Below, one piece after another: positions 4,086 to 27,454 of a stretch of 64,000 nucleotides of DNA (position 1 is the first letter of the stretch; each line of letters starts with the position of its first letter). Made by a program: the position numbers and the translations under genes. The notes below the pieces were generated by a model. The model was not told the origin of the DNA. It saw only the letters and a list, made by a program, of their open reading frames with translations, and did not search any database. The stretch is from contig OZ244170.1 of assembly GCA_965216565.1 (NCBI GenBank), forward strand, positions 4,224,001-4,288,000, written 5' to 3'. The DNA is from Bythopirellula sp. (lineage in GTDB: Bacteria; Planctomycetota; Planctomycetia; Pirellulales; Lacipirellulaceae).

Positions 4086-4113
4086 AGTATACCAATATTG
4101 GTCTAGCTGTCAA
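4086..4113 (-). promoter_or_regulatory. sigma70-like promoter (TTGACA-N16-TATACT) with overlapping 18-bp operator TATACCAATATTGGTCTA (4088-4105)
   Basis: Minus strand reads TTGACA GCTAGACCAATATTGG TATACT, upstream of the CotH gene; the same palindrome recurs at six other promoters. Confidence 0.8.
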
Positions 4114-4212
4114 GCTTCGAGCTTGTGTTTCCGACGCAGCCTGGGAGTTAAGTGACGCCGCGCGACATGACTCTTCTGTGACTAAGCCCATCTTGAGACT
4201 CTAGGGCTGAGA

Positions 4213-6183
4213 TTAAGTGCCTTCCATGGACGGTGGCGGGTCGTTGATGTGTCTTAGCCAAACCAGGTACAAGCCAACAAAGGCTGTGGCTCCGATAGCT
4301 AAGCAAATTGTGAATCCTTCCCAATTGCGGACTATGGCCAACATGGGTGTCAGGAAGAGCATGACCTGAAACGTCAATGCAAATGGTACCGCTGTGAGAT
4401 CGCGTCGATGTTCCGCGGTCACTTGGTCTCGCACATCATCGGGCAGTTCTGCCTTCAAGTGACTCCATAGGCCGAAGGGCCACGTTGTCCGATAAAAATT
4501 GCGTAGCACAGCTGGGTCAGTCGGTGGTGTGAACAGGGCACCGAGAACTGAAGCGATAAGCCCAATCGACCCCACGACGAGCAATTGAAAATGCGGGGAG
4601 AGTTCCGGATAAAGTAGCCGCTGTAGAAAAGCAGCCATCATTCCCGCGATCATTCCAATAGCAAAACCGCCCCCGTTAAAACGCCACCAGTACAGCCTCA
4701 ATATGATGGGCATCATCATGCCTCCACCCAAACCCATGATGATCCAGTCCCAGATTTCATTGACGTTTTTTATGCTATAGGCAAAGGCAAAGCCGATGAC
4801 AACGATGGCTGCGATGAATATCCAGGTTGCAAACAATAGCTCACGAATCCCCGCCGTCGGTCGGAGATGTTTTTGATAGATGTCCCGCACGAAGAGCCCA
4901 GCTGTCATGTTTACATTTGAATCGAATGTAGACATGGATGCAGCCAACAAGGCAACGATCATTAGGCCGCGCAGACCGGCAGGAATAACTAGCAGCAGGA
5001 CGGCCGGCAGAATACGTTCGGGATTCACAGTACCGTGATAACTGATCAGCAGCACTTTTTCTTTCCATTGCTCTCCTAACAATGCTTGCAACTGCTCGAT
5101 GAACTGGGGGTCCAACTGCTCCGGCGAGTTGATGAGGCCTGAGGTGTATTCCTGCCAACTCTCTTCGTTGACCTCTGGTGCATGGTTCTTGATGAGAACA
5201 GAAGCGTCTTGAATGACCGACTGATCAGGAAATAAATTGCCAATCAGCACTAGCCCCAGCACGGCAAAACTCATCATCATTGGCCATCGGGCGGACATGA
5301 GGCATGTCCACATGAAAGAGAGCTTACTGCATTCGGCGTCGGTTCGAGCACCGAAATACTTGGGATCGTCACCTGTACCAAGACCGAAGAAAAGATTGCG
5401 GAGTAGGTAGAGGCCGACAAACAGAATCAGATGCTGATACTGCTCGTAGCCTGTCGGCATGCTTGTGTTCCACTGGGGCGCGGCAGACATCCAACTGGTG
5501 TTACCAGTGATCTGGGTGGAAAGCTGCTCCAACGCTCCAGCGTCGGTTATTTGTGTCATTGCCAAGAAGCATACGAGCCCCACGGCGGCGAGGATAACTA
5601 CTGATTGCAATAGGTCAGTAAACACTACCCCGTAGAAACCCGAGAACATCGTATAGACGGCTGCCAGACAAATCACCACCAAGGCGCATTGCGTGGGGGA
5701 AAAAGGCAGAAGCATAGAAAAGAACAGGCCTACTGCCTTGGTGAGGTAAGCCAACATTCCGATTACCCAAGCAATCGTGGCGATTGCCTTAGCAAGCTGT
5801 GCGAACCGACCTCCAGGTCCATCACCGAAGCGATAGATCATCCACTCGGCACCGGTCAAGCAACCGGAACGTCGGTGCCACTTGCCAGTCCACAGCATCA
5901 TCATCACGAGCACCAGCACAGCTCCGCCACGAAACTCGATAAACAGCCCTCTAGGACCAAGGAGATACAAGAACGAGACAATCACCATCGTTCCGGCAAC
6001 ATCGAGATAGCTAGCCATTCCAGATGTCCCCAGCATCCACCAGGGCAGAGAACGGCCACCGACGAGATAATCTTCCAGGCTGGCAGAAGCTAGTTTCTTG
6101 AGATAGAAGGTCAACGCTATCAGCAGGCACAGGTATAGCCCGATTACTGCGTAGTCGAACCAATTCAGGTAGTCGGCAGCCAA
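4213..6183 (-). CDS. Sodium:solute symporter (SSS family), probable sugar transporter
   Basis: DYLVGGRSLPWW, G..TGAEW..YRFG, GFYGVVFTDLLQ, LLAASMSTFDS, RLYWWRFN and many hydrophobic helices. ORF track starts at 6252; TTG at 6183 follows an AAGGAG RBS and is the more likely start. Confidence 0.88.
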   Translation of the reverse strand: MAADYLNWFDYAVIGLYLCLLIALTFYLKKLASASLEDYLVGGRSLPWWMLGTSGMASYLDVAGTMVIVSFLYLLGPRGLFIEFRGGAVLVLVMMMLWTGKWHRRSGCLTGAEWMIYRFGDGPGGRFAQLAKAIATIAWVIGMLAYLTKAVGLFFSMLLPFSPTQCALVVICLAAVYTMFSGFYGVVFTDLLQSVVILAAVGLVCFLAMTQITDAGALEQLSTQITGNTSWMSAAPQWNTSMPTGYEQYQHLILFVGLYLLRNLFFGLGTGDDPKYFGARTDAECSKLSFMWTCLMSARWPMMMSFAVLGLVLIGNLFPDQSVIQDASVLIKNHAPEVNEESWQEYTSGLINSPEQLDPQFIEQLQALLGEQWKEKVLLISYHGTVNPERILPAVLLLVIPAGLRGLMIVALLAASMSTFDSNVNMTAGLFVRDIYQKHLRPTAGIRELLFATWIFIAAIVVIGFAFAYSIKNVNEIWDWIIMGLGGGMMMPIILRLYWWRFNGGGFAIGMIAGMMAAFLQRLLYPELSPHFQLLVVGSIGLIASVLGALFTPPTDPAVLRNFYRTTWPFGLWSHLKAELPDDVRDQVTAEHRRDLTAVPFALTFQVMLFLTPMLAIVRNWEGFTICLAIGATAFVGLYLVWLRHINDPPPSMEGT

Positions 6184-6353
6184 ATGGCTCACTCCTTTGT
6201 ATCTAGCCACCCATCTATAGAAACCTAAGCGCTGATTTCTCGCGCTTGCCAACTGTTTCGGGGGTAGTTAGAAATCGTCTTCAATGACTGAAAAATGTTG
6301 ATTAGTCTTTTTGGAGGATGAGAGTATTTCGAGAGACGTTTCTCAACTAGTCT

Positions 6354-9300
6354 TTAACGTAGGTAGAGACAAATTATTTCTGCCACCCGGTAGTCTATTG
6401 GGACCTCAAGCCATTGGTTGCCTTCATCATCTTGACGCACTGAGTAATCAAGTTGCTCCAATTCGTCTTCCATTATGTTGGTGCGGCAAACGGTATTAAA
6501 AGGCATGCTCGTTCTTAGTACGGCTTGGTCGCTCTGACCGAGTGGATCGTAGAGCCGGACAACGACTCCCGAGCCATTTTCCGCAGGCTTCACGGTATTG
6601 AGGACAAGCCGACCATCAACTGCAAAGAGGGACCGACCAGCGTCACTCGAAGATCGCTGTGTCCACAGCAACGGCTGATTGAAAGTGATTGCCTCTGAAA
6701 CGACATCCCCTTCCCGCCAGTCGCCTTGATGCGGCAACACGGCGTAGGAGAATTGATGCGAGCCCATATCGCATTTCTCATCAGGATAAGTAGGTGCGCG
6801 AAGCAAGCTTAACGTAAGCACGCTCCCAGAAACGCTATATCCATATTTGCAATCTGTGAGCAAGGCCAGGCCGAAACTTGGTTCTGAAAGATCGGCCCAG
6901 CGATGTCCTGGGACTTCAAACTTAGCCGCATCAGCCAGAGTGTTTGTATGTGTTGGTCTTTCGGCATAGCCAAACGGCATCTCGAATGTTGCACGATCGG
7001 AGCGAACCGTCGTGGGGAAAACGACTTTCAGGAGTTGATGCTTCTCCTGCCATTGCACATCGCAGTGGAATTCAAGTCGTCGTGCCCCGGCAGCCAGCCG
7101 AATGGTTTGCGACATAGAACTCTCAAGTCCCAATGGCCTTTCAAAGAGGATCTCCGCTTCGAGTGGGCCAGGAGATACGATCTGGCACTTGGTGGCGGGC
7201 TGACAAACGCGGCCCGTTTCTAGGATTGACGGATCTACGTCCCATGCGTCCCACAAGACGGGCCGATCCTCATGCATCACTAGGGAATTTCCTGCTGAAC
7301 TCAATACCGACCTTCCCGACTCTAGGCATACAAGTTCAAGGAGGTCGCCATTCTCAGTAAGCGTGGCTGAGATGATCCCATTCTGGATGTGAAGCTTGCC
7401 GTCGTGAAGTTCGACGGATACAGGTTCAATCACTTCGTCATCTGCTTTGACTCTTCCGAATCCAAAGGGGGGAGATTCAACCAGGGATGGTCCTCGGTCG
7501 GGAACATCCACCACCTCGCGACGAGCAACGGAGGTCGTGTTTAGAGGGGTGATGACTGAAGAAGACGAATCGTTAGGTGAAAGTCCGTTGAGCAACTCTT
7601 CGCGAAGTGCCTGGCCATATTCAAGAATCGAGGCAAAATCTGTGCGAGCCTGTTCGTGAACTTCTGCTATTGAGGAACCTGGAAGAATGTCGTGAAACTG
7701 ATTGAGCAGCAGTTTTTCCCAGAGTTTGTCTACCTTCTCCTTCGGATATTTTGCATCGCTCTCGTACTGACTAAGTACCCCAACAAGTTCGATATCGTGC
7801 AACAAACCTTCGCATTTTCGAAGGCCTCGCTTCATTAAAGCCTGACTCGTATAGGTTGCCCGGTGACCCTCAAGATAGAGTTCGCCTGTTACCGTAGGGA
7901 TCGAACGAGTTTGGTTCTTTAGCCGTTGGAAGAATTGCTCAGGCGACCGTTGATTAGAGCGAGGCACTCCCAGCAGATCTTTTGTGCGTCGCAAACTTTC
8001 CAGCATTTCAGCCGTCGGACCACCACCACCATCGCCATGTCCAAACAGATAGTAAGCATCCGCGCCGCGATCTGAATTCTTATAGTTGGCTGCGTGGTAG
8101 CGAAGCTGCGACACTTGGCAGGTCCCGCTATAGGTATCTGCGGGTGGGAAATGCGTCAGCACTCGGCTTCCGTCGGGGCTTTCCCAATAAAACGTGTGAT
8201 GCGGGGGCGAGGTAAACTTATTCCAGGATAGCTTCTGCGTTAAGAAATTATCGATTCCTGCCAACGACATGATCTGGGGCAGTTGTCCTGCGTACCCAAA
8301 GACATCCGGATTCCAAAACTCAGTGCAACGTCGCCCAAATCGGCTTTCAAAGTACTTCTGTCCGAACAAAAACTGTCGGCAAAGTGATTCGCCTGAGGGC
8401 AGATTGCAATCGGGTTCTACATACGTTCCTCCCACAGGAAGCCACTGACCTGAATCTATCTTCTCGCGAATCCGTTGAAACAAGTCTGGGTTCTGACTCT
8501 CTATGCAGGAGTACTGGTAGGCCTGGGGGCAAGCAAACAAGAACTCTGGATAGTCATCCATATGCAGCACGACGGAACTGAAAGTCCGCACTGTCTTTCG
8601 ATAAGACTCCGCCAAAGGCCAAAGCCAAGCGGTATCGATGTGGGCGTGTCCCACTGCACTTAGTTCGTGAGCAAAGCCGCCGTTGCCGATTCTCAGTAAC
8701 TCGGCGAGGATGTCTCTGGCAGGGCCCCATGTCTCCCGGTCACTGGGATCGAGTAAGTTGCAAACCTGATTAAGATCATACAACAGACGACCGGCCCAGG
8801 CAGAATCTAGCGCTGGGCGTACTAAGGGTGTTTTGCCAAGACCAATGCCTTCTGTCTCCTGAGATGGATTACGATCAGCAACCAACTCGGTCAGAACTCG
8901 TAAATCGTGATATAAGTCCCATGCTTCCTGGTCGTAGCGTCTGATCTCGCACGTTTGCAGCCAATGAGACGGACGATGAGTAGGCTCGGGCCATGGGAGA
9001 CCGGGAACTCCATCGGGCCCCAGTAGATGATTGCATGCCACCTCGACATATAGCGTTAGCTCTTCAGCGCCAGTGGATTCTTCAATCAACCTTGCTGTTT
9101 CCCGACCCGGGTTGAGGCCTTGGATAGAACGACCATCTAGCCACAACAGGGCCTCGCTATTGCTTAGCCACGCTAGATCGACACGGTGCCCTTTCCACTC
9201 TGGCGGTACACATACTTTCAATCGAAACCAAAATGTAGCGAAAGTCGGGCCGAGGGGATCGCCCATTTTGCCAGGACGATACGTGAGTGCCTTGGCCTCT

Positions 9301-9515
9301 TCCCACGAAATGCGAGAAACGGGGCCGGCAAGTGAAATCTGTGGAATGGCACAGCGATCTGGATAGATCGCCTCTTCCATTCGTTGGTTGAGACCGAGAA
9401 TTCGATCGAGAACGTAATTCTGCTCACCCAAATAAGGCGGAGAACCTGACGAATGATCAAGGCGGTAGGGATTCGACGTCTGCGGCACCCTCCTCTTATT
9501 CTCTTGCCTTTGCAT
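6354..9515 (-). CDS. Alpha-mannosidase, glycoside hydrolase family 38
   Basis: GHAHIDTAWLWP, PSGESLCRQFLFGQ, WNPDVFGY (nucleophile Asp), GHGDGGGGP, GELYLEGHRATYT, LLNQFHDILPGSSI. Confidence 0.93.
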   Translation of the reverse strand: MQRQENKRRVPQTSNPYRLDHSSGSPPYLGEQNYVLDRILGLNQRMEEAIYPDRCAIPQISLAGPVSRISWEEAKALTYRPGKMGDPLGPTFATFWFRLKVCVPPEWKGHRVDLAWLSNSEALLWLDGRSIQGLNPGRETARLIEESTGAEELTLYVEVACNHLLGPDGVPGLPWPEPTHRPSHWLQTCEIRRYDQEAWDLYHDLRVLTELVADRNPSQETEGIGLGKTPLVRPALDSAWAGRLLYDLNQVCNLLDPSDRETWGPARDILAELLRIGNGGFAHELSAVGHAHIDTAWLWPLAESYRKTVRTFSSVVLHMDDYPEFLFACPQAYQYSCIESQNPDLFQRIREKIDSGQWLPVGGTYVEPDCNLPSGESLCRQFLFGQKYFESRFGRRCTEFWNPDVFGYAGQLPQIMSLAGIDNFLTQKLSWNKFTSPPHHTFYWESPDGSRVLTHFPPADTYSGTCQVSQLRYHAANYKNSDRGADAYYLFGHGDGGGGPTAEMLESLRRTKDLLGVPRSNQRSPEQFFQRLKNQTRSIPTVTGELYLEGHRATYTSQALMKRGLRKCEGLLHDIELVGVLSQYESDAKYPKEKVDKLWEKLLLNQFHDILPGSSIAEVHEQARTDFASILEYGQALREELLNGLSPNDSSSSVITPLNTTSVARREVVDVPDRGPSLVESPPFGFGRVKADDEVIEPVSVELHDGKLHIQNGIISATLTENGDLLELVCLESGRSVLSSAGNSLVMHEDRPVLWDAWDVDPSILETGRVCQPATKCQIVSPGPLEAEILFERPLGLESSMSQTIRLAAGARRLEFHCDVQWQEKHQLLKVVFPTTVRSDRATFEMPFGYAERPTHTNTLADAAKFEVPGHRWADLSEPSFGLALLTDCKYGYSVSGSVLTLSLLRAPTYPDEKCDMGSHQFSYAVLPHQGDWREGDVVSEAITFNQPLLWTQRSSSDAGRSLFAVDGRLVLNTVKPAENGSGVVVRLYDPLGQSDQAVLRTSMPFNTVCRTNIMEDELEQLDYSVRQDDEGNQWLEVPIDYRVAEIICLYLR

Positions 9516-9589
9516 TGCGCTGGTTTCGTTCTGAGTTGGTGAGGTAAGAAAGAGAAGAGTGATGCCTAGGCAGACGTCTATTAACGGTA

Positions 9590-10681
9590 CTAAGACTTAC
9601 CGCTGACGATTGAGTGAGTTGCTCGTCCAATCGATCCACCATCAAAAATCTTGAGCTTGCTTGGTTCCATGAGCATCGGGCCTTTCCACTTATCCTTGTC
9701 ACCTCCTGCGATAAACCAATCGACACAAGTATCCATAAAATCAATTGGGTCAGGGCGTTCGAAAGATGCGATAGGTGGATTCATGTATTTGCCAATGCCC
9801 TCGCAGTCGATCGTGCAAACGGAAAGTTCATCTCCCACGGAAATACCCGCCTCGTTGGCTGCACGTATCACGCCCATGGCTGCTGGAAGCGTGACGCACA
9901 TAACTGCGCTAGTCTCCTCTTCGATAGAACGAATCCATTTTCGAGCCACCTTGAAACCTGCCTCGAAGATGTTTTCGTTGGATTTGCAAGGCCTGTCGAT
10001 TAGTTCACCGAGTGCACCGTCTTGACCCGACCAATTGTCCCATTCTCGGATTCGAGCCTCAGTTATTAGGTTATGTCTTTGAACATTGATGCAATCGATT
10101 CGGTGGTGTCCGAGTTTCTCCAATCGCGTTAGCATCGAGCCAATATAGTGAGGAGGAAACAATACAATTGATGGAATATCAAAATGTGTCAGATCTTCGG
10201 ATAAAGCGACAACTCCGGTTGCCTCTTTCAGTAAGCTTTCGGTCCATGAAGGAATCGGATCTGAACTCGTCACCAGGAAAACGCCATCGAAAGCACGAAT
10301 AGATTCGGTGATGATGGGATCGTCCCAGTGACTGTAATTTACTACCCGTACCCGCGCGTTGCGGTCTCGAGCAATTCTCTCCACAGCTGAAAGCCACAAT
10401 TGCAAGTCGGGAGAGAATGATTGCGGAGCTATGCTAGGAAGAACCACTGCGATCTGCAGCCCAGTTGCTGCTGACCTCGCTTTCGTGGTGAGCACTAATC
10501 GTCGGTTAGGGGCTCGTTCGAGCAATCCCTTTCGCTCCAGCTCCTCCAGGGACTTTCTCAGTGTGACTCGGCTTACGCCGATGTCGTCCGCGAGATCCCT
10601 CTCCGCTGGAATGTCGGACAACGCGTAGTCTCCCTTTTGAATCCGGCGCTCCAGCAGTTTGGCGATACGAAGATGCTTCAT
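9590..10681 (-). CDS. Transcriptional regulator with GntR wHTH and LacI-type sugar-binding domain (AraR-like architecture)
   Basis: MKHLRIAKLLERRIQKGDY..IPAERDLADDIGVSRVTLRKSLEELERKGLL; C-terminal GISVGDELSVCTID..PPIAS of LacI type. Start taken at ATG 10681 (ORF track extends to 10813). Confidence 0.88.
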   Translation of the reverse strand: MKHLRIAKLLERRIQKGDYALSDIPAERDLADDIGVSRVTLRKSLEELERKGLLERAPNRRLVLTTKARSAATGLQIAVVLPSIAPQSFSPDLQLWLSAVERIARDRNARVRVVNYSHWDDPIITESIRAFDGVFLVTSSDPIPSWTESLLKEATGVVALSEDLTHFDIPSIVLFPPHYIGSMLTRLEKLGHHRIDCINVQRHNLITEARIREWDNWSGQDGALGELIDRPCKSNENIFEAGFKVARKWIRSIEEETSAVMCVTLPAAMGVIRAANEAGISVGDELSVCTIDCEGIGKYMNPPIASFERPDPIDFMDTCVDWFIAGGDKDKWKGPMLMEPSKLKIFDGGSIGRATHSIVSGKS

Positions 10682-10750
10682 GATTAGCCTGAGAAATCTG
10701 CCCTGACGACTGCGGAAAAATGAACGTTTCAGCGGAACTAGACCAAGCAG

Positions 10751-10768
10751 TAGTCCAAATCCGGTACT
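10751..10768. promoter_or_regulatory. Degenerate copy of the locus operator upstream of the regulator (possible autoregulation)
   Basis: TAGTCCAAATCCGGTACT, about 13/18 match to the consensus; an extra TAGACCA half-site lies 12 bp upstream. Confidence 0.4.
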
Positions 10769-10857: not shown

Positions 10858-10875
10858 CATACCATATTTGGTATA
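10858..10875. promoter_or_regulatory. Operator palindrome in the divergent regulator/sulfatase intergenic region
   Basis: CATACCATATTTGGTATA matches the recurrent 18-bp palindrome. Confidence 0.75.
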
Positions 10876-12441: not shown

Positions 12442-12447
12442 ACTAGG

Positions 12448-12897
12448 TTAGTCTTGCAGTGTGAAGTCGTGTGTTTGCTTGCCCTGCACGACATCCACTT
12501 TCAGCCCACTCAGCTCATGGTTACCGTACTTGGCTGGAATGGGAACGTATTTCAGCGGATCCTTTTCGGGCTCCTCGAAGAGTGGCCCGGTGGGGGGTTG
12601 CATCATGGGCGAGGGCTCGTGGGACATAATAACCACGGTCGCTCCTGGGCCGATCTCAACACCTGAGACTTCATATTTTCCGAACTCGATATTGCCCGAA
12701 ATGACTTTTCCATTCTGGCTGACAAATGCAATCGTTCCCGTCGTGATTGGCTCGTCTTTGAAAGTAACCTTACCATTAATGGTAGAAGTAGGCGGATTGC
12801 ATCCAAGAGTCATGGAATACACTACAGATGCGAAGACGCCCGCCAGCACATGAATGCTCGTGCGATTGGTGATGTTTCTTGTCACGTGCTTACTCAT
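12448..12897 (-). CDS. Small lipoprotein with carboxypeptidase-regulatory-like domain (usual DUF1559 partner)
   Basis: Hydrophobic leader ending LGC; INGKVTFKDEPITTGTIAF; IPAKYG..SGLKVDV..G.QTHDFTL; start overlaps the DUF1559 stop by 4 bp. Confidence 0.8.
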   Translation of the reverse strand: MSKHVTRNITNRTSIHVLAGVFASVVYSMTLGCNPPTSTINGKVTFKDEPITTGTIAFVSQNGKVISGNIEFGKYEVSGVEIGPGATVVIMSHEPSPMMQPPTGPLFEEPEKDPLKYVPIPAKYGNHELSGLKVDVVQGKQTHDFTLQD

Positions 12898-13907: not shown

Positions 13908-14081
13908 GTCCCAAGCTCTTTGATTTCGGAAATTCGAGCGTAGCCAACACTTGGGGACACCAATACTCTGACTTATAGGCTTATAGTTGCCAATCATCTT
14001 AAAACACCTGAAAAGAGAATTCACAAGATCGGAGAGAGTATGACTATTTCGGATCACCCCACCTGAATTTCTTAATAATGA

Positions 14082-16428: not shown

Positions 16429-16457
16429 AGCATACCAATTTTGGTATAGTATGTCAA
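16429..16457 (-). promoter_or_regulatory. sigma70-like promoter (TTGACA-N17-TATGCT) with overlapping operator CATACCAATTTTGGTATA (16431-16448)
   Basis: Read directly; upstream of the GH99-DUF1559-lipoprotein unit; extra CAGACCA half-site at 16421-16427. Confidence 0.82.
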
Positions 16458-18265: not shown

Positions 18266-20956
18266 CTACTTCGCTATTTCTGAACGATCGTATTTCGGCA
18301 GGGTGCCCGTAGTTCGAATTTCGTTTCGCAGAACCATTCCAGCTTTGCCGGCTAGATTTAAGTAGAAATCGCTTGGCAATCCCTCGTAATCAATAAACTT
18401 TCCACCGTTAGCGACAGGTGGATCATTCGTGCATTTGAAAATCGCGGTACCTTCGTCGACTTCGTCGAACATCGCAAAATAGAGCATATCGCAATTTGCT
18501 CGTTTTGCTTCAACGATTTGCTTCCAGAGAAACTGGCCCTTTAGTCTCGGAATCGCGTTCAGCTTGTCACCCTTGAGGTTATGCCAACTAAAGCCGGGGA
18601 AAACCACAGGCATATAGTCCAGGTCTCTCTGTTTGGCCCACCTGTTGTCGATTCGCCAATAGCGCTTCGCATGGTTGCTGATGTCGTCTAATGTTCGATA
18701 TCGCCCTACGGTCCATGGACTGAGAACATCAGCAAGCTGAAGAACTTCATGCAAATGAGGATCGGGAATCGAATCACGCTTGAGCTCACGCCAGCCAGTT
18801 GGAATACCAAGCATCACGCTGCAGTTGTCCGCTTTAAAAAACTTGATCAACGCTTCGCACTCTGAGAGAGAGTACTCGCGTGGTTTGGTTTCGCTTCCGA
18901 ATCCAACCCCCCAAACGGCTACAAGAGGTTTCCCCTCGTGGAACTGGTACGCGGGGTTACTGTCTATTTGAAGTGTCTCTCGCAGATTATGCCAATCTTC
19001 TTCAATGGTCTGGACACCTCCAGCGGGGAGACCAGAAAGGTCGTACATCACCACGAACGTTCTTCCAGTTTGGTTGGCGCTATCACTGGCATGGCGAAGA
19101 ACAGTGTTGCGATGGCGAAGGATACGATCGTTCGATAAACCGTTGGCGAAGCGTTGCACAAAAGCTCCATCGATACCGTATTCTCGCATCCACTGAAAAT
19201 GCCTGAGCACCGTTTTGTGGTTCGCACTGCTAAAGACTTTGGCAACTTTACCTCCAGTGTGCTTGAACCCTGTCTCATAGAGTTCATCGTCATCGTACTC
19301 CGAGATATCGGGCCACAGGTCTACCGTGACGCTGCCGGGAGCGAACTTTTTGCCCCGCTTTCCCCAATGCGTCCAGCCCAGATCCATGCCATCGCCTTCG
19401 CAGTTGAACCAGCCTTGATAACCGCACATGACCTTACCCTTGAGCGTACCGCGATTAACCGCTTGGGAACGAATGGTGGAACGCGTATTCTGGTTCTTGA
19501 CGGTCTCGTTTAGCAAAACAGTTAATCGACTGACAATGTCTGGATGTAACTGATACAAGTTCTTTTCCTCAAACGGATCATCCGCGAGATTGTAGAGCTG
19601 TCCGCGCGGGCCCGTGGCGGATGGCTCGATATATTTTGGTTTCGAAAATCCTCCCGAGCCGAGTTCAGTAATAAGCTTCCAGTCGCCATCGCGCACCATC
19701 ATCATGGAAGGACGACTGCCCGCCTGCATGACGAAACTCTCACGCACACCTTTGTGGGCGGGGCTCTTGCTGAGCAATGTCGAAGAAAAGTCGACACTAT
19801 CGGGACCAGCCTCAGCGGGGAGATTTACATCCATGATGGCGGCGAAGGTTGCCAGAAAATCGGTGAAACAAACAAGCTGGTCGCTGGTGGAATTGGGCTC
19901 CACTTGCCCTGGCCACCGGACAATCATCGGCATCCGATGGCCCCCTTCCCAGGCATCCGATTTCATTCCTCGAAAGCCCCCCGTGCTCGAGTGGCCAAAT
20001 TTTTCGACATCCGTCTCACGCCAGCAAGGTCCGTTATCGGAAGTGAAAATGACTAGTGTGTCATCAGCGATTTGCGATTGGTCTAATGCATCGAGGACTT
20101 TTCCGATTTCGTCATCCACCATCGAAGCAAAGTCCCCGTACAAACCAGCTTTGCTTGTGCCCTTGAATTCATAGGAAGGTAGCCAGGGCGTGTGAGGAGC
20201 GGTATAAGCCAAATAGAGTAGGAGTGGTTGTTTTCCGTTTGCTTGTGACTTTGCATGCCCCTTGATGACCCGTACAGCCTGACTCGTAAATACTGGAAGC
20301 ACCTTCTCAAGTTTCATTCCTGGTGCAATTCCACCTGCCAACCGTCTTCGTCCCTGGATTTTTGACCAGTCTTCCGAAAAATCGTCATCGATGTGTTCGG
20401 TAGGCGGCTTCACTGCCTGATCATCTTGAATGTAGAAATATGGCGGAATATCGGTCGATGCTCGCATCCCATAAAATTGATCGAATCCGCAATCTACCGG
20501 TCCACCGCGCAATGGTTTGTCGTAGCCTTCTTCCTGGAAGCCAAGATGCCATTTACCAACCATCACCGTGTGATATCCTGCACGCTTGGCCACAGAGGCG
20601 ATGGTTGTTTGATCAGGCTCGATCAGGCTGTGTGTTGGCCAGCGGGTAACATCTGTACGGAAAGGATATCGACCGGTCAGCAATCCGTAACGCGACATGT
20701 GGCAAAGTGGCCCCGGAGCGTGGGCATCGGTAAAACGCATCCCTTGCTTGGCAAGCTGATCGATGTGTGGGGTAGATATTTTCGACTGCGAGTTGAAACA
20801 GCCTGGGTCGCCGTAACCCATATCATCGACCAGAATGAGCACGATGTTTGGCTGGGTCGGACGACCACCTGCGCGGTGAGGCCATGCCGCGGCCAATAGA
20901 AGAATGCTGCTCAGGGAAACGATGGTTAGTCGTACAAACATGTCGCCACACCGCAT
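18266..20956 (-). CDS. Fusion of an arylsulfatase-type S1 sulfatase and a GH99/GH71-like glycoside hydrolase
   Basis: N-terminal half PNIVLILVDDMGYGD, CHMSRYGLLTG, GKWHLG, FTSDNG, EGGHRMP; C-terminal half LKGKVMCGYQGWF, WMREYGIDGAFVQRF, YDLSG, PWTVGR, FPGFSW, AMFDEVDEGTAIFK. Confidence 0.85.
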   Translation of the reverse strand: MRCGDMFVRLTIVSLSSILLLAAAWPHRAGGRPTQPNIVLILVDDMGYGDPGCFNSQSKISTPHIDQLAKQGMRFTDAHAPGPLCHMSRYGLLTGRYPFRTDVTRWPTHSLIEPDQTTIASVAKRAGYHTVMVGKWHLGFQEEGYDKPLRGGPVDCGFDQFYGMRASTDIPPYFYIQDDQAVKPPTEHIDDDFSEDWSKIQGRRRLAGGIAPGMKLEKVLPVFTSQAVRVIKGHAKSQANGKQPLLLYLAYTAPHTPWLPSYEFKGTSKAGLYGDFASMVDDEIGKVLDALDQSQIADDTLVIFTSDNGPCWRETDVEKFGHSSTGGFRGMKSDAWEGGHRMPMIVRWPGQVEPNSTSDQLVCFTDFLATFAAIMDVNLPAEAGPDSVDFSSTLLSKSPAHKGVRESFVMQAGSRPSMMMVRDGDWKLITELGSGGFSKPKYIEPSATGPRGQLYNLADDPFEEKNLYQLHPDIVSRLTVLLNETVKNQNTRSTIRSQAVNRGTLKGKVMCGYQGWFNCEGDGMDLGWTHWGKRGKKFAPGSVTVDLWPDISEYDDDELYETGFKHTGGKVAKVFSSANHKTVLRHFQWMREYGIDGAFVQRFANGLSNDRILRHRNTVLRHASDSANQTGRTFVVMYDLSGLPAGGVQTIEEDWHNLRETLQIDSNPAYQFHEGKPLVAVWGVGFGSETKPREYSLSECEALIKFFKADNCSVMLGIPTGWRELKRDSIPDPHLHEVLQLADVLSPWTVGRYRTLDDISNHAKRYWRIDNRWAKQRDLDYMPVVFPGFSWHNLKGDKLNAIPRLKGQFLWKQIVEAKRANCDMLYFAMFDEVDEGTAIFKCTNDPPVANGGKFIDYEGLPSDFYLNLAGKAGMVLRNEIRTTGTLPKYDRSEIAK

Positions 20957-21048: not shown

Positions 21049-21066
21049 TATACCAAATTTGGTATA
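21049..21066. promoter_or_regulatory. Perfect operator palindrome TATACCAAATTTGGTATA between the divergent sulfatase-GH fusion and EEP genes
   Basis: Exact 18-bp palindrome in intergenic DNA. Confidence 0.85.
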
Positions 21067-21210
21067 GTGCAAAGCCTGTCCCTCAAAATAGTGGCCATTT
21101 CGCTCGTGGATGGCTTGCCTCGCGCTTAGCTACCTTGCCTTGAAGGAGAATACGGGACTCGCAAAGGATTTTTCTCTCACCTAGTGTCTTCGATTAACAG
21201 GGTTTGAAGT

Positions 21211-22137
21211 ATGAAAATCGTCTCAGAAATCCAATTACGAATTCTGCCAATCTTACTTGTCTTCGCTGCTTGCGAATTGTTCGGTTACACCTTAACGGCC
21301 AAGGCTCAGTCCGACTCAATAGACACGACAAAAGTGATGAGCTTCAACGTACGATTTGGAAAGGCCGACGATGGCCCCAATCGATGGGATGCACGCCGAG
21401 ACTTAGTCGTTAAGACCGTGAAAGATTTTGATCCCGATATTTTGGGCACTCAGGAAATGATGGGATTTCAATCGAAATTCTTTCAGCAACAGCTAACAGA
21501 TTATGGCTATCACGGAACCAGCCGTATTCCCACCGATGACGATCAAGAGCAGTGTACCATTTTCTATCGCACGTCCAGGTTCGAGAAAACTGATGCGGGT
21601 CACTTTTGGTTGAGTGAATCGCCCGATCAGCCTGGATCAATCTCCTGGGATTCGTCGCTGCCACGCATGGCTTCTTGGGTAAAACTAGTCAATCGGCGAG
21701 ACCCCAATCGCGAATTCTTCGTTTTCAATACTCACTTTGACCATGTTGGACAAGAAGCCCGACTGCAAGCGTCTGCGCTCCTCCGCCAACGGATTCAGAC
21801 CATTGCTGATGGTATGCCGACAATTGTCACTGGAGATTTCAACTCTGCTGAAAACAGCATTGCTCACCGAGTTCTATTGTTTGCCACAAAGCAGCTTACC
21901 CTGATTGATACATTTCAATCTGTAAGAACGCGGCCCGATCCCAATGCAGAGTCGACCTCCTCGCGGTGGAGTGGCAACCGTAAGGGGAGACGCATTGATT
22001 GGATCTTATGTTCATCTCACTGGGACGTAGCACACGCCGCAATCGATCGGTCGAACGACGAAGGGCGATATCCCTCGGATCACTATCCCGTAACAGCGCA
22101 CATCTCGCTTAAGTCTGAAGAGGTGACCGGCAAGTAG
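21211..22137 (+). CDS. Secreted endonuclease/exonuclease/phosphatase (EEP) family protein
   Basis: VMSFNVR, DILGTQE, GHFWLSE.P, FNTHFDH, TGDFN, RIDWI, PSDHYPV; hydrophobic leader. Confidence 0.9.
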   Translation: MKIVSEIQLRILPILLVFAACELFGYTLTAKAQSDSIDTTKVMSFNVRFGKADDGPNRWDARRDLVVKTVKDFDPDILGTQEMMGFQSKFFQQQLTDYGYHGTSRIPTDDDQEQCTIFYRTSRFEKTDAGHFWLSESPDQPGSISWDSSLPRMASWVKLVNRRDPNREFFVFNTHFDHVGQEARLQASALLRQRIQTIADGMPTIVTGDFNSAENSIAHRVLLFATKQLTLIDTFQSVRTRPDPNAESTSSRWSGNRKGRRIDWILCSSHWDVAHAAIDRSNDEGRYPSDHYPVTAHISLKSEEVTGK

Positions 22138-22206
22138 TCATTATGACAAACCAATGCCGTCTCGATGCAAACGCAATGATGGTATGGCCAACAGACTCTC
22201 TCTAGC

Positions 22207-25200
22207 CTAGAGCAGTTCAGAGAATTCGGGCCTGATTGCTTCTTCAGAATGCATGCCTTGTTCTGCGAATGCTTGCTCGTAAGCATGCAAATCCAGTTCC
22301 TCACTAATCGGAATTCGTACTAAGACCTGATTAGGTTGCAGATCATAGCTCTCGTCACTGTTCAGTAGAGAGCTATTTTGCTGCTCGATTGCATCTTGAT
22401 CATCCTCTGCGGAGCCTTGGTTCGCCACAGCCCAGAGCAGCATGCCAGCGTCTCGAACTGCGCTGAGACCAGGCGAAGGTGACGATTCAATTGTCTGAGC
22501 CGAGGAAGCAGCGAGTGTGGGTTCAGACGAAAAGCTCGAAGCGGTTGCGATTTGAGAACTAGCAGGTGCCGCCAATGGTTGCGACTGGCTGAGACTCACC
22601 TGCCAAGTTAGGAAATCAATTCCGTCGACATAACCACTCGCATCCCCGTCTGCTCCTTGGCCAGTGGGGATAGTTGACCCGTAATCGTTTGTCCACTTCG
22701 TTAAATCACTTGTTCCGACCGAACCGTTTTCATCATAGTCACCAGCAATGGCCGGTACACCGACTATGCTAAAAGTTGAGGTCTCAAACGAATCCCCAAT
22801 ATTGCCCCGGCCATCGGTAGGAGTAAGACGCAGTTGGTAAGTGCCTGAAGTGAGTCCGGTTGTATCCCAACTAAATACGTCGGACCAGGTACTTTCGCCA
22901 GTTGAGACGTTATATCCACTAGACGATGCAACGCTTGCATGTTCGATCGCCCTCCCCGCCTCATTCCATGTTGCCCCTCCGTTGTTCGTCCACTCGATAT
23001 CAACCAGGTTGTCTTCTTGTCCAGTCCATTGATCCATGGTGCCTGTTTTCCAATCGTCAGTGAGCGACAAGACGACTGAAACGAGGTTCTGCGGTGTGTT
23101 GACTATCGCAAATCCAGATTGCAACTCCGGACTGATAAGATCTCCAAAAGAGTGCAGCACACGCACATGATCGATTGGAATATTGTTGCCAGTAATCCGA
23201 AAGTCCGAAGCACCATTCTGTCTGTTGCCAAAGTAGGCATTGTCCAAGTAGAAGCGAGCAGTCCGCCATTGTCCACTATTTTCCAGGGTAACCGAATTCG
23301 CATTCTGATAAGCGGCGCTGGTGGAATCGTACTGGATATTTAGATTTCCGAAGCCAACATCTCTATAGGTCACTTCCACGATGGCATTCAGTCCGGCTTC
23401 GACTTCGCTTGCGAAGCTGTCATCAATTCGCATGTACATGTACAGGGAAGTGGGTGTACCAGAAAGCTGCCGAACCATGCGGCCATCGTTGGTGGTTGCC
23501 GTGGTTTGGCCATCCCCCGCCAGTTCTACCTGCTCTAGCCCCTTGCTGGCATTGGTGTTTCCCAAATCGGCATCAACTGCCAACATACTTTCCTTGATCA
23601 CGCGCACGCGTCGAACAAACAAATTCCCGCCTGCTCTCTCTAGTCGGAAATCCGCGTTGCCAGTTTGGCTGTTGCCAAAGTATGCATCTGATAGGTTGAA
23701 ACGGTGCGTTCGCCACTCGCCACTATTGGTTAATAGAGCAGCACTACTAGCCTTCGTAGATGAGGTTGTCGAATCGTATTCCACCTCGAAATTACCCGTA
23801 CCCGAGTCCAGATATTCCACTTCGATCGTGACATCTCGGCCGTCAACTTCTTGGAAGAGGAATCCATCATCAACCTGAAAATGCATTAAGTCATCAGTGG
23901 AAAAGATCGCATCGAAAGTATTACCATCGATGGTGAATGGCATGGTTTGGATTTGGCCACCCGCGACACTGACGTAATCTAGGCGATCGCTTCCAGAACC
24001 TTGCCAAACAACTTCGCCGCCAACATTCGCCCGATTTTCTAGTTCTGCTTCGGTGGGAATTGTGTCGTTAATTGAAATCTTGTTTTGCAACGCTTGCTTT
24101 GCCTGCCCTGTCAGTGCCAGCCACCAATCATTTGGCCTGGGGTCGCTGGTCTGATAGGTGAGTGGGTCGCCCTGGGCGTCTGTGTCGGGGACAGGAGGAT
24201 CGTCGCTAGCCGGTATGATATTCGTCCCCTCGTCATACTCATCGAACATTCCGATGAAGTACCAGGGGGCGTTGGTTTCGTTGGCAGCATCACTGATCAT
24301 GCGCCAATAGAATTCGCCATCTTCACGGTCGAGTGATGTGGCCGTGTCGTCGTTCTGCAAATGAGTCCAGGAAAACCCAGGGAAAATGTGAGGGATATGA
24401 TCGGCTGTGCCGTTGAGAATCGCTTCGTTGGGAGCAAACGAGTCACCACCCCACCAATACCCTTGCCAAGGGATGTAGGCATCGTTCAGGTTCGCATTGG
24501 CATGTTGCGTGGGTGTCTGTGTATGCCGACCTGCACCTATTACATACACGCCCTGATTCTTGAAATAATTGACTAAGTCCGTCTGCTGGGCCGTCGTATA
24601 GCTATTTCCGCTGCTCACGTAGAGTCCGAAAATTGCAACAACTGGCTTGCCATCTTCACTCTGGTAGTGCGAGTCGTTCAGCATGTCGAAGCCATTGACG
24701 TCGCTCAAGTATTCCCAATCGTCCTTAACCTGTTGAATCCTTTCCCATCTTTGAGCTTCGGTGCCTCCGTTTTGAATATCGTATTCGATCGCCCAGGTAC
24801 GTCCCTCGCGATGCGCCGCGTCGCGGGCATTCACAACGGGCCATTGCGGCTCGCCGACATAGGAGTTATCGGGCTGTTTAAACATGAACGACTCAGTGAA
24901 CCGCTGCACAAAAACACCATCGATATCATGCTCGCGCATCCATTGGAAATGGCGATTTACTACTGAGGCATTGGCTGAGGAAAATAGATATGCTTGCTCG
25001 CCGCTAGCGGTCGATACACCCGGCACCGCGAATACCTCGGTCGAGTCGTAGTCATTCACATCGGGCCACTGCTCCACGGACCAATCGCCCGGATTGCCCC
25101 AGTGGACGTATCCTTCGTCGGTAGCATCGTTGGGAGTATTAAACCACCCTTGATAGCCTGCCAGTACTTTCCCCTTGAGCGTGGAAGCATCGACTTCCCT

Positions 25201-25752
25201 GCTGAACCCTTGGTAAGGAGCTTGCCAGGGAGGCGAATCAACATATTCCAAACCACTATTCGGAAATGGCGTGTCCGATATTTGTACAGAAGAGACTGGC
25301 GTACCAAATGCAACGACGCGGAAATCATGACCGTTAGAACCATTCTGGAACTGTACGTTGTCCAGGTAATGGTACGAATTTACAAATTCTTGCGAATCAA
25401 CACGCGAGGATCGCGTGTGAAACTCCGTTTGATCGAAATTGCTTGCGACACTGTCGTATTGAAATCTGACCGTTCCAGAGCCTTCGTCAAAGTAATTGAT
25501 TTTGGCGTAAAGAGTATCGCCAGCCTGAAAGCCAGGAAAATTGGAGGGGTTGGTATTGTAATAGAGATAGGCTGGTCCAACGTAAACGTTAGTGCTATCC
25601 CGCTGCTCTAAGCTCCAGGTGCCATCGCCACTATTGGACGAGGGCGTCGTAAACGTAAGGGTTGTTAAGAGGACTCGATTTTCGAGTCTCTCAAAAGTTG
25701 ATTTGCGGCCGGCTAGTGAAGCAGTAGAGTTATTCTTCGATTCCGTGCTCAT
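22207..25752 (-). CDS. Large extracellular GH99/GH71-like hydrolase with three repeated beta-sandwich-like modules and dockerin-like C-terminus
   Basis: TFERLENRVLL motif; LKGKVLAGYQGWF, WMREHDIDGVFVQRF, FPGFSWTHL, GMFDEYDEGT; three copies of a Y.D.G.G.....YDS...DFR module; GDYDENGSV...GDASGYVDGIDFLTWQ. Confidence 0.8.
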   Translation of the reverse strand: MSTESKNNSTASLAGRKSTFERLENRVLLTTLTFTTPSSNSGDGTWSLEQRDSTNVYVGPAYLYYNTNPSNFPGFQAGDTLYAKINYFDEGSGTVRFQYDSVASNFDQTEFHTRSSRVDSQEFVNSYHYLDNVQFQNGSNGHDFRVVAFGTPVSSVQISDTPFPNSGLEYVDSPPWQAPYQGFSREVDASTLKGKVLAGYQGWFNTPNDATDEGYVHWGNPGDWSVEQWPDVNDYDSTEVFAVPGVSTASGEQAYLFSSANASVVNRHFQWMREHDIDGVFVQRFTESFMFKQPDNSYVGEPQWPVVNARDAAHREGRTWAIEYDIQNGGTEAQRWERIQQVKDDWEYLSDVNGFDMLNDSHYQSEDGKPVVAIFGLYVSSGNSYTTAQQTDLVNYFKNQGVYVIGAGRHTQTPTQHANANLNDAYIPWQGYWWGGDSFAPNEAILNGTADHIPHIFPGFSWTHLQNDDTATSLDREDGEFYWRMISDAANETNAPWYFIGMFDEYDEGTNIIPASDDPPVPDTDAQGDPLTYQTSDPRPNDWWLALTGQAKQALQNKISINDTIPTEAELENRANVGGEVVWQGSGSDRLDYVSVAGGQIQTMPFTIDGNTFDAIFSTDDLMHFQVDDGFLFQEVDGRDVTIEVEYLDSGTGNFEVEYDSTTSSTKASSAALLTNSGEWRTHRFNLSDAYFGNSQTGNADFRLERAGGNLFVRRVRVIKESMLAVDADLGNTNASKGLEQVELAGDGQTTATTNDGRMVRQLSGTPTSLYMYMRIDDSFASEVEAGLNAIVEVTYRDVGFGNLNIQYDSTSAAYQNANSVTLENSGQWRTARFYLDNAYFGNRQNGASDFRITGNNIPIDHVRVLHSFGDLISPELQSGFAIVNTPQNLVSVVLSLTDDWKTGTMDQWTGQEDNLVDIEWTNNGGATWNEAGRAIEHASVASSSGYNVSTGESTWSDVFSWDTTGLTSGTYQLRLTPTDGRGNIGDSFETSTFSIVGVPAIAGDYDENGSVGTSDLTKWTNDYGSTIPTGQGADGDASGYVDGIDFLTWQVSLSQSQPLAAPASSQIATASSFSSEPTLAASSAQTIESSPSPGLSAVRDAGMLLWAVANQGSAEDDQDAIEQQNSSLLNSDESYDLQPNQVLVRIPISEELDLHAYEQAFAEQGMHSEEAIRPEFSELL

Positions 25753-25866
25753 TGACCTCTGTCCCTACTAAAGTTGTTGATTGGTTGAACTGTTGTACAG
25801 AGGAAGTTCAAGCAAACGCCTGCAGGCGCGGCTCGCACGCATATACTGAGTCAGCCCAAGTCTCAG

Positions 25867-25884
25867 TATACCAATACTGGTCTA
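25867..25884. promoter_or_regulatory. Operator palindrome TATACCAATACTGGTCTA overlapping an extended -10 (TGG-TATACT, minus strand)
   Basis: Read directly, about 115 bp upstream of the 22207-25752 gene. Confidence 0.8.
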
Positions 25885-26112
25885 CTTAGCCAGCATTTGG
25901 GGAGATTCCACCAGAAGGCCCACATTTGAGCCTCATGGATTAGGAATGGATTCCCCATGATCTCACCCCACCGCGTGTATGCAGCCATTCTTGGGATCCG
26001 CTGCTGCCTCTCGATTTATAGAGGCTCGACTCATATTTAATAGGGTCAGGTGGAAATGGGCTTGGTGAAAAAGCAGCGAAAATGACTTTTCCAGGGATCA
26101 GAATTCATTTGC

Positions 26113-26140
26113 TTGACAACTAGACCAATATTGGTACAGT
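26113..26140 (+). promoter_or_regulatory. sigma70-like promoter (TTGACA-N16-TACAGT) with operator TAGACCAATATTGGTACA (26121-26138)
   Basis: Read directly upstream of the PEP-CTERM gene. Confidence 0.82.
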
Positions 26141-26290
26141 AGAGCTATTGACACTGCTTTTCTAGATGGAGGGATTTTGAGGGTCTCGTGGCTTACGGGG
26201 CAAATGCCGTGCGATCTCCTCAAAGCGTTCCAATGATCTAATTGTTTCTTGATCCAGACTAGTTTTCTTTTTTTGGAGGGAGTAAAGCTC

Positions 26291-27208
26291 ATGAAGCGTG
26301 CAGCAATATTTAGTTTGGTAGCCAGCCTTTTGGTGGCAAGCCTTGCGGTCGTCGACCAAGCAGACGCCGCCACCCTGCGTTACCGTGCAAGTGGCGACTG
26401 GAGCCTGATTACTGATGGGGTAACCCCCGGCTGGGGTCCCAACCCTAGCGGCGTTGGTGTTTCGTTGCCTGGGGCTGGTGACGATGCCCGTATTAACTTT
26501 GGTAACAATACAGTTACGGTAACATCCGCAGTTCCTACTGTGAGTCGAGTTCAAATCGGTGTGGACGAAAGCGGAAACGTAGTGGTCGCCAATGGTGGCA
26601 CTCTCTCAGCCGACCTCGATATTCTCGCTGGAAACAACAACTCCAACGCCACCGGAAATCTAATCGTCAATAGCGGTGGAACGGTAAATGTTGGCCGAAT
26701 CTTATGGTCTGCCAACGATAGTTCGGACGGCAATATCACCATTGATGCAGGTGGCCAGGTCAACGTGGCCAGTCACCTGTGGTTGGGTGTAACGGGAACT
26801 TCCATAATAAATATTGATGGTACGCTGACTCAAACCGGTGGTATTTTGGGTCTTGGTACAAACAACGCTTCGACTCCTAATGGCGGTACGGCCACGGTGA
26901 ATGTCAACAGTGGCGGGCTTCTGGCTTTGAACAACATTTCTAGTGCAGGTGGACTGCCATCGGTTCAAGCTGGTTCGCTGCTGAATATTACCGGAACTGG
27001 CGAAATCACTGTTCCCGGTGATTTCACTAGTACGTTGCAGGCCTATGAGGATGCCGGCAAGCTTGTTGGTAATCTTGGAGTATCTGATGTGACGATCAAC
27101 CTCACCAAGAATCCTGGCTTTACGACTGCATTCATAGTTCCAGAGCCCGCTAGCCTTATGTTGTTCGCTCTGGGGATGAGTGGGATCCTGCTTCGCAAGC
27201 GAAGCTAA
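26291..27208 (+). CDS. PEP-CTERM surface protein with Gly/Asn-rich beta-helix-like repeats
   Basis: GGAGG RBS then MKRAAIF signal peptide; repeated VNSGG-type strands; VPEPASLMLFALGMSGILLRKRS. Confidence 0.85.
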   Translation: MKRAAIFSLVASLLVASLAVVDQADAATLRYRASGDWSLITDGVTPGWGPNPSGVGVSLPGAGDDARINFGNNTVTVTSAVPTVSRVQIGVDESGNVVVANGGTLSADLDILAGNNNSNATGNLIVNSGGTVNVGRILWSANDSSDGNITIDAGGQVNVASHLWLGVTGTSIINIDGTLTQTGGILGLGTNNASTPNGGTATVNVNSGGLLALNNISSAGGLPSVQAGSLLNITGTGEITVPGDFTSTLQAYEDAGKLVGNLGVSDVTINLTKNPGFTTAFIVPEPASLMLFALGMSGILLRKRS

Positions 27209-27254
27209 ACTCCAGGCATGCATAGAAATGTTTTAACTCGATGAATTATCAAAC

Positions 27255-27296
27255 GGTTGGACCAAGTCACACCTCGGCTTGGTCCAACCTTTTTTT
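27255..27296 (+). terminator. Rho-independent terminator
   Basis: 12-bp stem GGTTGGACCAAG / CTTGGTCCAACC followed by T7. Confidence 0.85.
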
Positions 27297-27426
27297 GGCG
27301 CTGGGTTGAAAGAATCAATTTTGGATCACACCAAACCAGATCCAGCCAGGAGACCAATTAGCAGTCCCTCGAACGCAAAGTGAACGAATTTGACATCGAG
27401 ATTATCGGAAAATCTCATCCAATCGC

Positions 27427-27454
27427 TTGACAACTAGACCAGATTTGGTATACC
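27427..27454 (+). promoter_or_regulatory. sigma70-like promoter with operator TAGACCAGATTTGGTATA (27435-27452)
   Basis: TTGACA AC TAGACCAGATTTGG TATACC; GCTTGACAACTAGACCA is identical to the 26113 promoter. Confidence 0.8.

Follow-up and report, generated by a model that had tools for sequence, protein, structure and literature searches.

What coordinates the many promoters of a planctomycete glycan-degradation locus, and how is the DNA recognized? The question is raised by a 64,000-nucleotide stretch of Bythopirellula sp. (GenBank assembly GCA_965216565.1, contig OZ244170.1, positions 4,224,001 to 4,288,000; here called the window, in whose coordinates features are given), where an 18-bp palindrome recurs between genes for mannosidase-family proteins, sulfatases, and uncharacterized surface proteins and beside the gene of a 363-aa GntR-LacI protein (9590..10681, minus strand). 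From the comparisons described below, we conclude that the palindrome is probably the operator of this adjacent protein, which would bind it as an everted dimer and block RNA polymerase until released by a sugar.

Distribution of the Palindrome

A pattern scan of the window found zero-mismatch copies of the palindrome at 4088, 10858, 16431, 21049, 25867, 26121, and 27435, all seven of them intergenic, and 21 strand-matches at no more than two mismatches against 2.25 expected, a number reached in none of 100 shuffles. In the whole 5,211,746-bp genome the strict pattern has seven matches, all inside this 23.4-kb stretch; base composition predicts 0.26 strict matches on each strand of the genome, although this number is post hoc, as the pattern was derived from the seven sites themselves. 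With a position weight matrix (PWM), the seven sites score 24.9 to 30.4, the next sequence genome-wide scores 20.1, and the rest score 17.1 or less. The original prediction, made from the letters of the window, had placed intergenic copies at these seven positions and no full copy after 35 kb; both statements hold, and the PWM scan that it proposed as a check shows that the motif is not common at unrelated promoters. A genome-wide regulon was rejected, as the next PWM matches (20.1 and below) are mostly intragenic or beside unrelated genes. A lone intergenic near-site (G000:C1:4822440, PWM 20.1) lies within a glycosyltransferase/sulfotransferase cluster.

A degenerate copy, also predicted, begins at 10751 and has three mismatches to the palindrome, which places it outside the list of matches at two or fewer. 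It turned out to belong to a three-half-site, putatively autoregulatory box (10739..10768), composed of the degenerate palindrome (10751-10768) and a direct-repeat half-site (10739-10746). The box lies just 3′ of the predicted minus-strand promoter (10801-10773) of the regulator operon and is kept in the window and in all seven of the closest orthologues.

The regulator combines a GntR winged helix (PF00392, 46.3 bits against a cut-off of 27), modeled as three helices and a hairpin, with a LacI-type sugar-binding domain (PF13377), whose predicted structure has a LacI fold and gives Foldseek LacI matches to E 4e-14. The head has arginines at positions 28 and 38 and no GxGT wing. Arg210 aligns with the conserved LacI-family arginine that has a role in sugar binding and is nearly invariant in the 25 of 150 family representatives that were aligned. 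The start of the protein agrees with the starts of its closest orthologues, and its closest named relatives are Lacipirellulaceae and Bythopirellula records. One cultured carrier is Bythopirellula polymerisocia Pla144 (L092), which has a 69% orthologue and four sites within 21 kb.

Among 120 family genomes, 46 match the regulator: besides its own genome, 16 have a protein at 54-73% identity, one has a protein at 44%, and in the others identity is about 31%. All 16 orthologues at 54-73% identity have a site with a PWM score of at least 20.1 within 600 bp upstream. A refined strict pattern is present in 16 of 17 carrier genomes vs 3 of 103 non-carriers, and each of the 32 carrier sites lies less than 25 kb from the regulator; this pattern was tuned on carrier sites, and the non-circular parts of the result are its absence elsewhere and the clustering. 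One of the non-carrier exceptions (G040) is a 4.7-kb contig from the same locus, on which the large GH99-like gene has an orthologue at 68% identity, and the other two (G061 and G079) have one promoter-placed site each, before unrelated genes. Gene order is highly variable among 15 orthologue loci (up to 60 kb), with sites still heading the units. The proposal that the GntR-LacI protein is the regulator of the motif is supported by this co-occurrence and persistence through rearrangement, as well as by covariation between protein residues and operator bases.

Half-Site Orientation and Predicted Base Recognition

Each half of the palindrome, TGGT(A/C)TA, is an ordinary half-site of the FadR/NagR type, and the two halves face outward (ACCA-N4-TGGT). 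The GntR family operator consensus is N-GT-N(0-15)-AC-N, and the palindromes given in the accessible portions of the literature place GT before AC (PMC4494728, PMC1950556); the ACCA-N3/4-TGGT arrangement found here does not match this GT-first form. To follow the arrangement through the family, 121 loci were dereplicated to 90 regulators, 57 of which fall outside both Lacipirellulaceae-type clades. De novo palindromic expectation-maximization on these 57 distant members returned tATAccAaatTggTATa, the same everted arrangement, from several phyla, with log-likelihoods of 101-121 (widths 17-20) vs 27-47 for shuffles, of which there were two per width with fewer starts than for the real data. An everted scoring model that is blind to bases 2 and 3 of the half-site scores at least 12 in 24 of the 57 regulator upstreams, vs 8 of 138 same-locus gene heads and 4 of 300 heads from the regulators' own genomes. 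The spacing profile of strong sites has its maximum at 3-4 nt.

The two bases to which this model is blind follow two residues of the regulator head. Across the 24 site-bearing distant regulators, G stands in all 28 half-sites of proteins with Arg38 and in none of the 20 half-sites of proteins with another residue there, while Arg28 goes with G in 36 of 44 and its absence with non-G in 4 of 4. None of 20,000 shuffles matched the observed fit of the code, two rules of which were taken from the same data. On a tree built from the effector domain only, four branches show His38 with T (one of them nested in the Tyr clade), three show Tyr38 with C, and at least three have lost Arg28 and carry T. 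A Victivallis member with Glu28 and Tyr38 has the doubly changed half-site TTCTATA, and a Tyr38 paralogue clade has TAGCA-N4-TGCTA in 11 of 12 loci. The code predicted from these sequences would read G for Arg and T for any other residue at position 28, and G for Arg, C for Tyr, T for His, and A for Gln at position 38. Many family genomes have the Tyr38 clade (L019-L030, L149, L151, L152) next to DUF1559, GH97, and GH99-like genes, and seven genomes have it side by side with the Arg38 clade.

A structural precedent for these contacts is NagR, in which, according to the accessible text, Arg38 reads G-5 and Arg48 reads G-4, which are the guanines of TGG, while the wing contacts G-7 in the minor groove, two bases 5′ of TGG (PMC4333415). 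These arginines align with R28 and R38 of the window regulator, and the covariation has the same polarity. With this polarity, each half-site turns its 5′, wing-contacted side toward the center; by analogy, both wings would then meet in the A/T-rich 3-4-bp spacer. We infer this head polarity from the NagR and FadR contacts. The GxG[TS] wing motif is found in none of the 90 regulators and none of 25 further sampled representatives, which have xNGR or PNRR instead, and so short a wing would ease the fit of both wings.

Several observations weigh against an everted operator read by this code. Thirty-three of the 57 distant regulators have no site at threshold and were dropped before the code was counted, and regulators with both arginines occur without a coded site, namely the 44%-identical protein of G046 and five more distant members (L118, L122, L129, L145, L147). 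G is missing from 8 of the 44 Arg28 half-sites; the rules pairing His with T and Gln with A were derived from the very sequences that they describe; and half-sites of the same palindrome are not independent of each other. When the code was used to look for additional sites around distant regulators (about 10 kb), only 6 turned up in 43 loci, a rate of 0.14 per motif vs 0.04 for wrong codes. Similar AGCA palindromes also occur before unrelated genes. Finally, a canonical arrangement with a 4-nt gap is mildly enriched (15 of 57 vs 14 of 138), although its matches do not obey the code (10 of 30 and 11 of 28). Of the AGCA-type palindromes, the one at L168:3189 (G079) lies over a promoter 5′ of a small helix-turn-helix gene unrelated to the regulator family.

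The alternative that survives best, though we hold it to be unlikely, is that the protein binds as monomers or to arrays of half-sites, as in NanR or MocR operators, or canonically head to head on overlapping sequence, in which case the everted dimer would be wrong. The third half-site of the autoregulatory box, a direct repeat at 12 bp, fits such a mode, as do the extension of site 27435 into canonical TGGTATACCA, the spacer of 3 or 4 depending on clade, and the AraR heads, which are described in the accessible text as not in contact on DNA (PMC3592433). Against it, the canonical extension is present on the right in only 2 of 54 sites and on the left in none, and strong sites peak at a spacing of 3-4 nt. 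We tried the canonical head-to-head arrangement with a 2-nt gap and rejected it: its matches (32 of 57) are equally strong in controls (39 of 138), obey the code in only 22 of 64 and 20 of 64 cases, and are self-overlap artefacts of TATA.

Position Relative to Promoters

In promoters predicted from sequence, TTGACA and a -10 box frame four of the candidate operators with spacers of 16-18 nt: 4088..4105 in the CotH promoter (TTGACA 4113-4108, 16 nt, TATACT, minus strand), 16431..16448 in the promoter of the GH99-like/DUF1559/lipoprotein unit (minus strand, TTGACA-17-TATGCT), 26121..26138 in the PEP1 promoter (plus strand, TTGACA-16-TACAGT), and 27435..27452 in the PEP2-DUF1559-GH92 promoter (plus strand, TTGACA-18-TACCAT). 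A fifth, the perfect palindrome at 21049..21066, which separates the sulfatase-GH99-like unit from the EEP gene, accompanies TTTGCA-17-TATTAT, and in each of these five the right half TGGTAYA forms or abuts an extended -10 element. The other two lie in the divergent region between regulator and sulfatase (10858..10875) and 5′ of the gene for the 1181-aa GH99-like protein (25867..25884). The consensus of 54 sites from the window and its relatives is TTGACA-N2-[TATACCA-AWWT-TGGTATA]cT, with at least five of the six TTGACA bases just upstream in 28 of the 54; orientation in this alignment was picked to favor the TTGACA match.

The candidate operator overlaps the predicted core promoter and covers both spacer and -10 box. 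Because the site fills the -35/-10 spacer, repression is the likely mode of action, and relief of repression by a sugar is likely by analogy with AraR. The original prediction had the site sitting just inside TTGACA and filling the spacer in four cases, as we find at 4088, 16431, 26121, and 27435, and its suggestion of a repressor that blocks RNA polymerase draws support from the same placement. The LacI-type fold of the C-terminal domain is the basis for calling this putative repressor sugar-responsive.

A position exactly between -35 and -10 is also that of MerR-type activators, and the protein could instead be an activator or a ligand-dependent binder of this kind. MerR, however, remodels long spacers, whereas the spacers here are 16-18 nt with near-consensus hexamers, and the site covers the -10 box itself. 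Moreover, AraR, which has the same architecture, is described in its accessible text as a sugar-released repressor (PMC3592433). We consider activation very unlikely.

Slightly less probable again is that the palindrome is no operator at all and represents a pair of extended -10 elements set back to back in a bidirectional promoter, one TGnTATAnT per strand. In most sites the right half does coincide with the -10 box (TGGTATAcT in columns 12-20), and the AGCA and AACA variants likewise fit TGnTATA. However, the motif is limited to one locus of the genome and to carrier genomes; sites 4088, 16431, and 27435 face a single gene start; and of 300 ordinary gene heads, just 4 reach the scoring threshold. 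An extended -10 box leaves one base free; in these sites the two halves mirror each other at that base, which changes in step with residue 38, and the -14 G is lost in members without Arg28.

That a different, unlinked regulator binds the motif is scarcely credible: the promoter-placed sites in the non-carriers G061 and G079 could be read in its favor, but the window's genome has a single copy of this regulator family, and motif and GntR-LacI protein co-occur, with co-varying residues and bases.

Relation to Known Regulators

The regulator family comprises 292 clusters at 50% identity (E 1e-30 or better), and about 8-10 of 11 sampled neighborhoods contain a glycoside hydrolase, sulfatase, esterase, DUF1559, or similar gene by Pfam, with none in L132 and L148. 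We found no description of the motif or the family in the literature searched, most subscription journals being outside it, so that absence from print is not established.

The closest likeness in architecture is AraR of Bacillus subtilis, which also joins a GntR winged helix to a LacI-type sugar domain and governs a local sugar regulon with several promoter operators and autoregulation (PMC3592433, PMC1950556). As its accessible descriptions give it, the AraR operator, ATTTGTACGTACAAAT, has GT before AC and wings outward, whereas here AC precedes GT, and AraR binding needs the wing residues Gln61-Gly62, whereas the wing of the present family is shorter. The window locus has mannosidase, sulfatase, and GH99-like genes and no arabinose genes. 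The family profile matches the AraR head weakly (E 1.5e-6; NagR does better, at 1.2e-10), and AraR effector domains are absent from the best 60 of 65 profile matches. Since the tests of operator, wing, and regulon failed, we do not file the protein as AraR.

The FadR/HutC repressors (FadR, UxuR, NanR, NagR, DasR) share the half-site TKGT, which is TGGTATA in NanR (PMC4494728), and the same two arginine-guanine contacts (PMC4333415). They differ in that, in the accessible reports, the half-sites either oppose each other head to head across a GT..AC gap of 2-4 nt or form a direct repeat, and in having effector domains unrelated to the LacI-type domain. In MocR regulators (GabR, PdxR), too, GntR heads bind boxes of the ATACCA/TGG type, variously oriented (PMC4494728, PMC5320631), but these proteins have an aminotransferase effector domain and, as far as these sources describe, boxes at least one helical turn apart, in contrast to the tight everted palindrome of 3-4-nt spacing. 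MocR operators are, by analogy, a precedent for GntR heads leaving the canonical geometry. A local repressor is in itself ordinary; the new part is the everted operator with a cross-phylum code.

Combining these observations, we propose that the GntR-LacI protein would bind the palindrome as a dimer with its winged-helix heads reversed (everted, wings inward), and that the bound dimer would block RNA polymerase at the -35/-10 spacer, where the right half-site doubles as the extended -10 box (TGGTATAcT). A sugar from a probably sulfated alpha-mannoside substrate would release the repressor; candidates for this effector are (sulfated) mannose and a manno-oligosaccharide, which the symporter would import and GH38 would trim. 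The regulon would comprise the hydrolases, the sulfatases, the symporter, the PEP-CTERM pair, the DUF1559 proteins, EEP, and the CotH-VTC-DUF4956 unit. Direct binding, repression, and effector identity are what we infer from the sum of this evidence.

Gene Content of the Locus

On the left, site 4088 heads a CotH/LTD/Fn3 protein (19..3864, minus strand), whose unit runs on left of the window through DUF1559, VTC, and DUF4956 genes (G000:C1:4221391-4223862; L171:7391-9862). CotH orthologues are headed by a site in four of four genomes, and VTC-DUF4956 also lies 3′ of CotH in G018; CotH with VTC or DUF4956 reportedly figures in work on Pel clusters of Gram-positive bacteria and on loci of Clostridium; in the window's genome the combination falls under a candidate glycan operator. 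A sodium:solute symporter follows (4213..6252, minus strand), the most conserved partner of the regulator at 15 of 16 loci (at least 40% identity, as for the partner counts below), and then a GH38 alpha-mannosidase family protein (6354..9515, minus strand; 7 of 16 loci) in an operon with the regulator.

Beyond the divergent region lie an S1 sulfatase (sulf1, 11020..12441, plus strand), a 149-aa hypothetical protein with a lipoprotein-like N-terminal sequence (12448..12897, minus strand), DUF1559 prepilin-type protein a (12894..14057, minus strand), and a 707-aa GH99-like hydrolase (14082..16205, minus strand; 12 loci) that keeps an SFNEWHE motif and has a PEP-CTERM-like tail. Next come a second sulfatase (sulf2, 16613..18202, minus strand), nearest the S1_11 6-O-sulfatases (5G2V, E 3e-154), and a sulfatase and GH99-like fusion (sulf3, 18266..20956, minus strand), which is found whole or as one of its domains in 13 loci and whose sulfatase is nearest 7OZE/6S20 and far from OpSulf1 (9FVT). 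In the sulf3 signature (residues about 84-89), C-H-M/L-S-R replaces CxPxR, in the window and in nine of nine orthologues found. An EEP-family phosphoesterase with a signal-like N-terminus (21211..22137, plus strand), located inside the regulator-GH38-symporter run in three other genomes, precedes the 1181-aa GH99-like protein (22207..25752, minus strand).

The right part of the locus opens with PEP1, a PEP-CTERM beta-helix surface protein (26249..27208, plus strand; probable start ATG 26291) followed 3′ by an intrinsic-terminator-like hairpin (27255..27296, plus strand), and its paralogue PEP2 (27855..28982, plus strand). Between PEP2 and DUF1559 prepilin-type protein b (29117..30223, plus strand; 6 loci), positions 28983-29116 form a long G+C hairpin without a T tail, which may be a stabilizer of the PEP2 message or a brake on read-through. 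A GH92 alpha-mannosidase family protein (30401..32866, plus strand; 6 loci) and a periplasmic sugar-binding protein (SBP, 32974..34014, plus strand) complete the row; a 73% orthologue of GH92 in G055 is directly headed by a site. The PEP1/PEP2 family occurs in 11 of the 120 genomes, all carriers, and all 21 copies are in the regulator's locus. A site lies directly upstream of 10 of 11 PEP1 and 10 of 10 PEP2 copies (20 of 21 together), and the remaining PEP1 copy is in a PEP2 unit, 3 kb downstream of a site. In the G007 locus (L038-L039), the GH38, CotH, and large GH99-like genes are fragmented, possibly by assembly frameshifts.

The predicted regulon is real and largely right, although the reversed half-site geometry and the family-wide code were not part of the prediction. 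It had the sites covering every unit from CotH to GH92/SBP. Sites do head the units, but the CotH unit runs about 2.6 kb beyond the left end of the window, and neither GH92 nor SBP has its own site here; both would depend on read-through from 27435. Its tie between the uncharacterized genes and the degradative enzymes stands directly for the PEP-CTERM pair (20 of 21 headed) and CotH (four of four), and by operon position for the DUF1559 proteins and EEP. Membership of SBP was not borne out, with no own site and no homologue at 40% identity or more in any of the 16 related loci.

The locus has a GC content of about 50% vs about 55% in the left flank. About 45 kb of low-GC DNA lies between a serine-recombinase gene and a JAB-domain gene on the left and a tyrosine integrase (42600-43886) on the right; low GC and the flanking recombinase and integrase suggest a genomic island.

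Substrate and Surface Proteins

The enzymes that point to 6-O-sulfated alpha-mannosides are GH38, GH92, three GH99-like domains, all of which keep catalytic-type motifs, and the S1_11-like sulfatase. Judged from these sequences, the substrate is probably a sulfated alpha-mannoside glycan, and not the exact diatom-mannan cascade of Polaribacter. The C6-sulfated alpha-1,3-mannan polysaccharide utilization locus of Polaribacter/Ochrovirga likewise has, in its accessible description, a sulfatase-GH99-related fusion, a GH92, and an S1_11 sulfatase (PMC13063451), whereas the window locus lacks SusC/D and has PEP-CTERM proteins, DUF1559 prepilins, and a symporter. Two points count against this assignment. 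GH99-like genes also flank the Tyr38 paralogue clade and therefore do not fix the substrate, and no protein of the locus is near the S1_51 endo-sulfatase 9FVT. This enzyme (OpSulf1) matches sulf3 at E 9e-22 (7OZE at 2e-72) and sulf2 at 2e-28, far below the best matches, and does not figure among the sulf1 matches listed at E 1e-20; identity with the Polaribacter cascade was rejected at this S1_51 step. Of 1815 relatives of the GH99-like domain, the 120 listed include none named Polaribacter or Ochrovirga, most of these entries being nameless.

The predicted structure of PEP1 is a confident beta-helix (predicted local distance difference test 89.9). Its best structural match is 4WA0 (Z 15.7, root-mean-square deviation 2.8, 188 aligned, 16% identity), titled a possible adhesin of C. 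kronotskyensis, which we take to be a tapirin itself; two tapirin entries follow at Z 12.3-12.4. Foldseek gave nothing for PEP1 at E 0.001 or better, the Atlas matches are only hypothetical or PEP-CTERM clusters, and the 120 listed of 213 sequence relatives have no functional name but one "ice-binding" label. Tapirins are reported, in the accessible text, to bind cellulose, with genes beside pilin genes (bioRxiv 10.1101/614800). The likeness to the tapirin and type IV pilus system of Caldicellulosiruptor is one of analogy only, as the PEP1 fold is a repetitive beta-helix and neither anchor nor phylum is the same. By this analogy, we hypothesize that PEP1, PEP2, and the DUF1559 prepilins may be parts of a glycan-capture apparatus.

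Implications

Polysaccharide capture and import in planctomycetes were called unexplored in a 2024 fucoidan study (PMC11685898), and planctomycete genomes have many uncharacterized PEP-CTERM and DUF1559 genes. The operator singles out which of these go with one glycan enzyme set, and the named genes and promoters are available for work in cultured strains. More broadly, and more tentatively, we suggest a possible undescribed branch of GntR-LacI regulators acting on glycan loci of Planctomycetota, Lentisphaerota, Verrucomicrobiota, Abditibacteriota, and Armatimonadota, which would combine inside-out palindromes, a central minor groove occupied by both shortened wings, recognition through a two-residue code, a half-site serving as extended -10, and a regulon marking the PEP-CTERM pair and DUF1559 prepilins as stand-ins for SusC/D. 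If this is true, an operator could be written from protein sequence through the two-residue code, and the binding rules of the GntR family would be extended by a closely spaced everted palindrome whose code of two positions holds across several phyla. It would also allow regulon prediction in glycan degraders of the Planctomycetota-Verrucomicrobiota-Chlamydiota (PVC) group and may provide a set of orthogonal sugar sensors.

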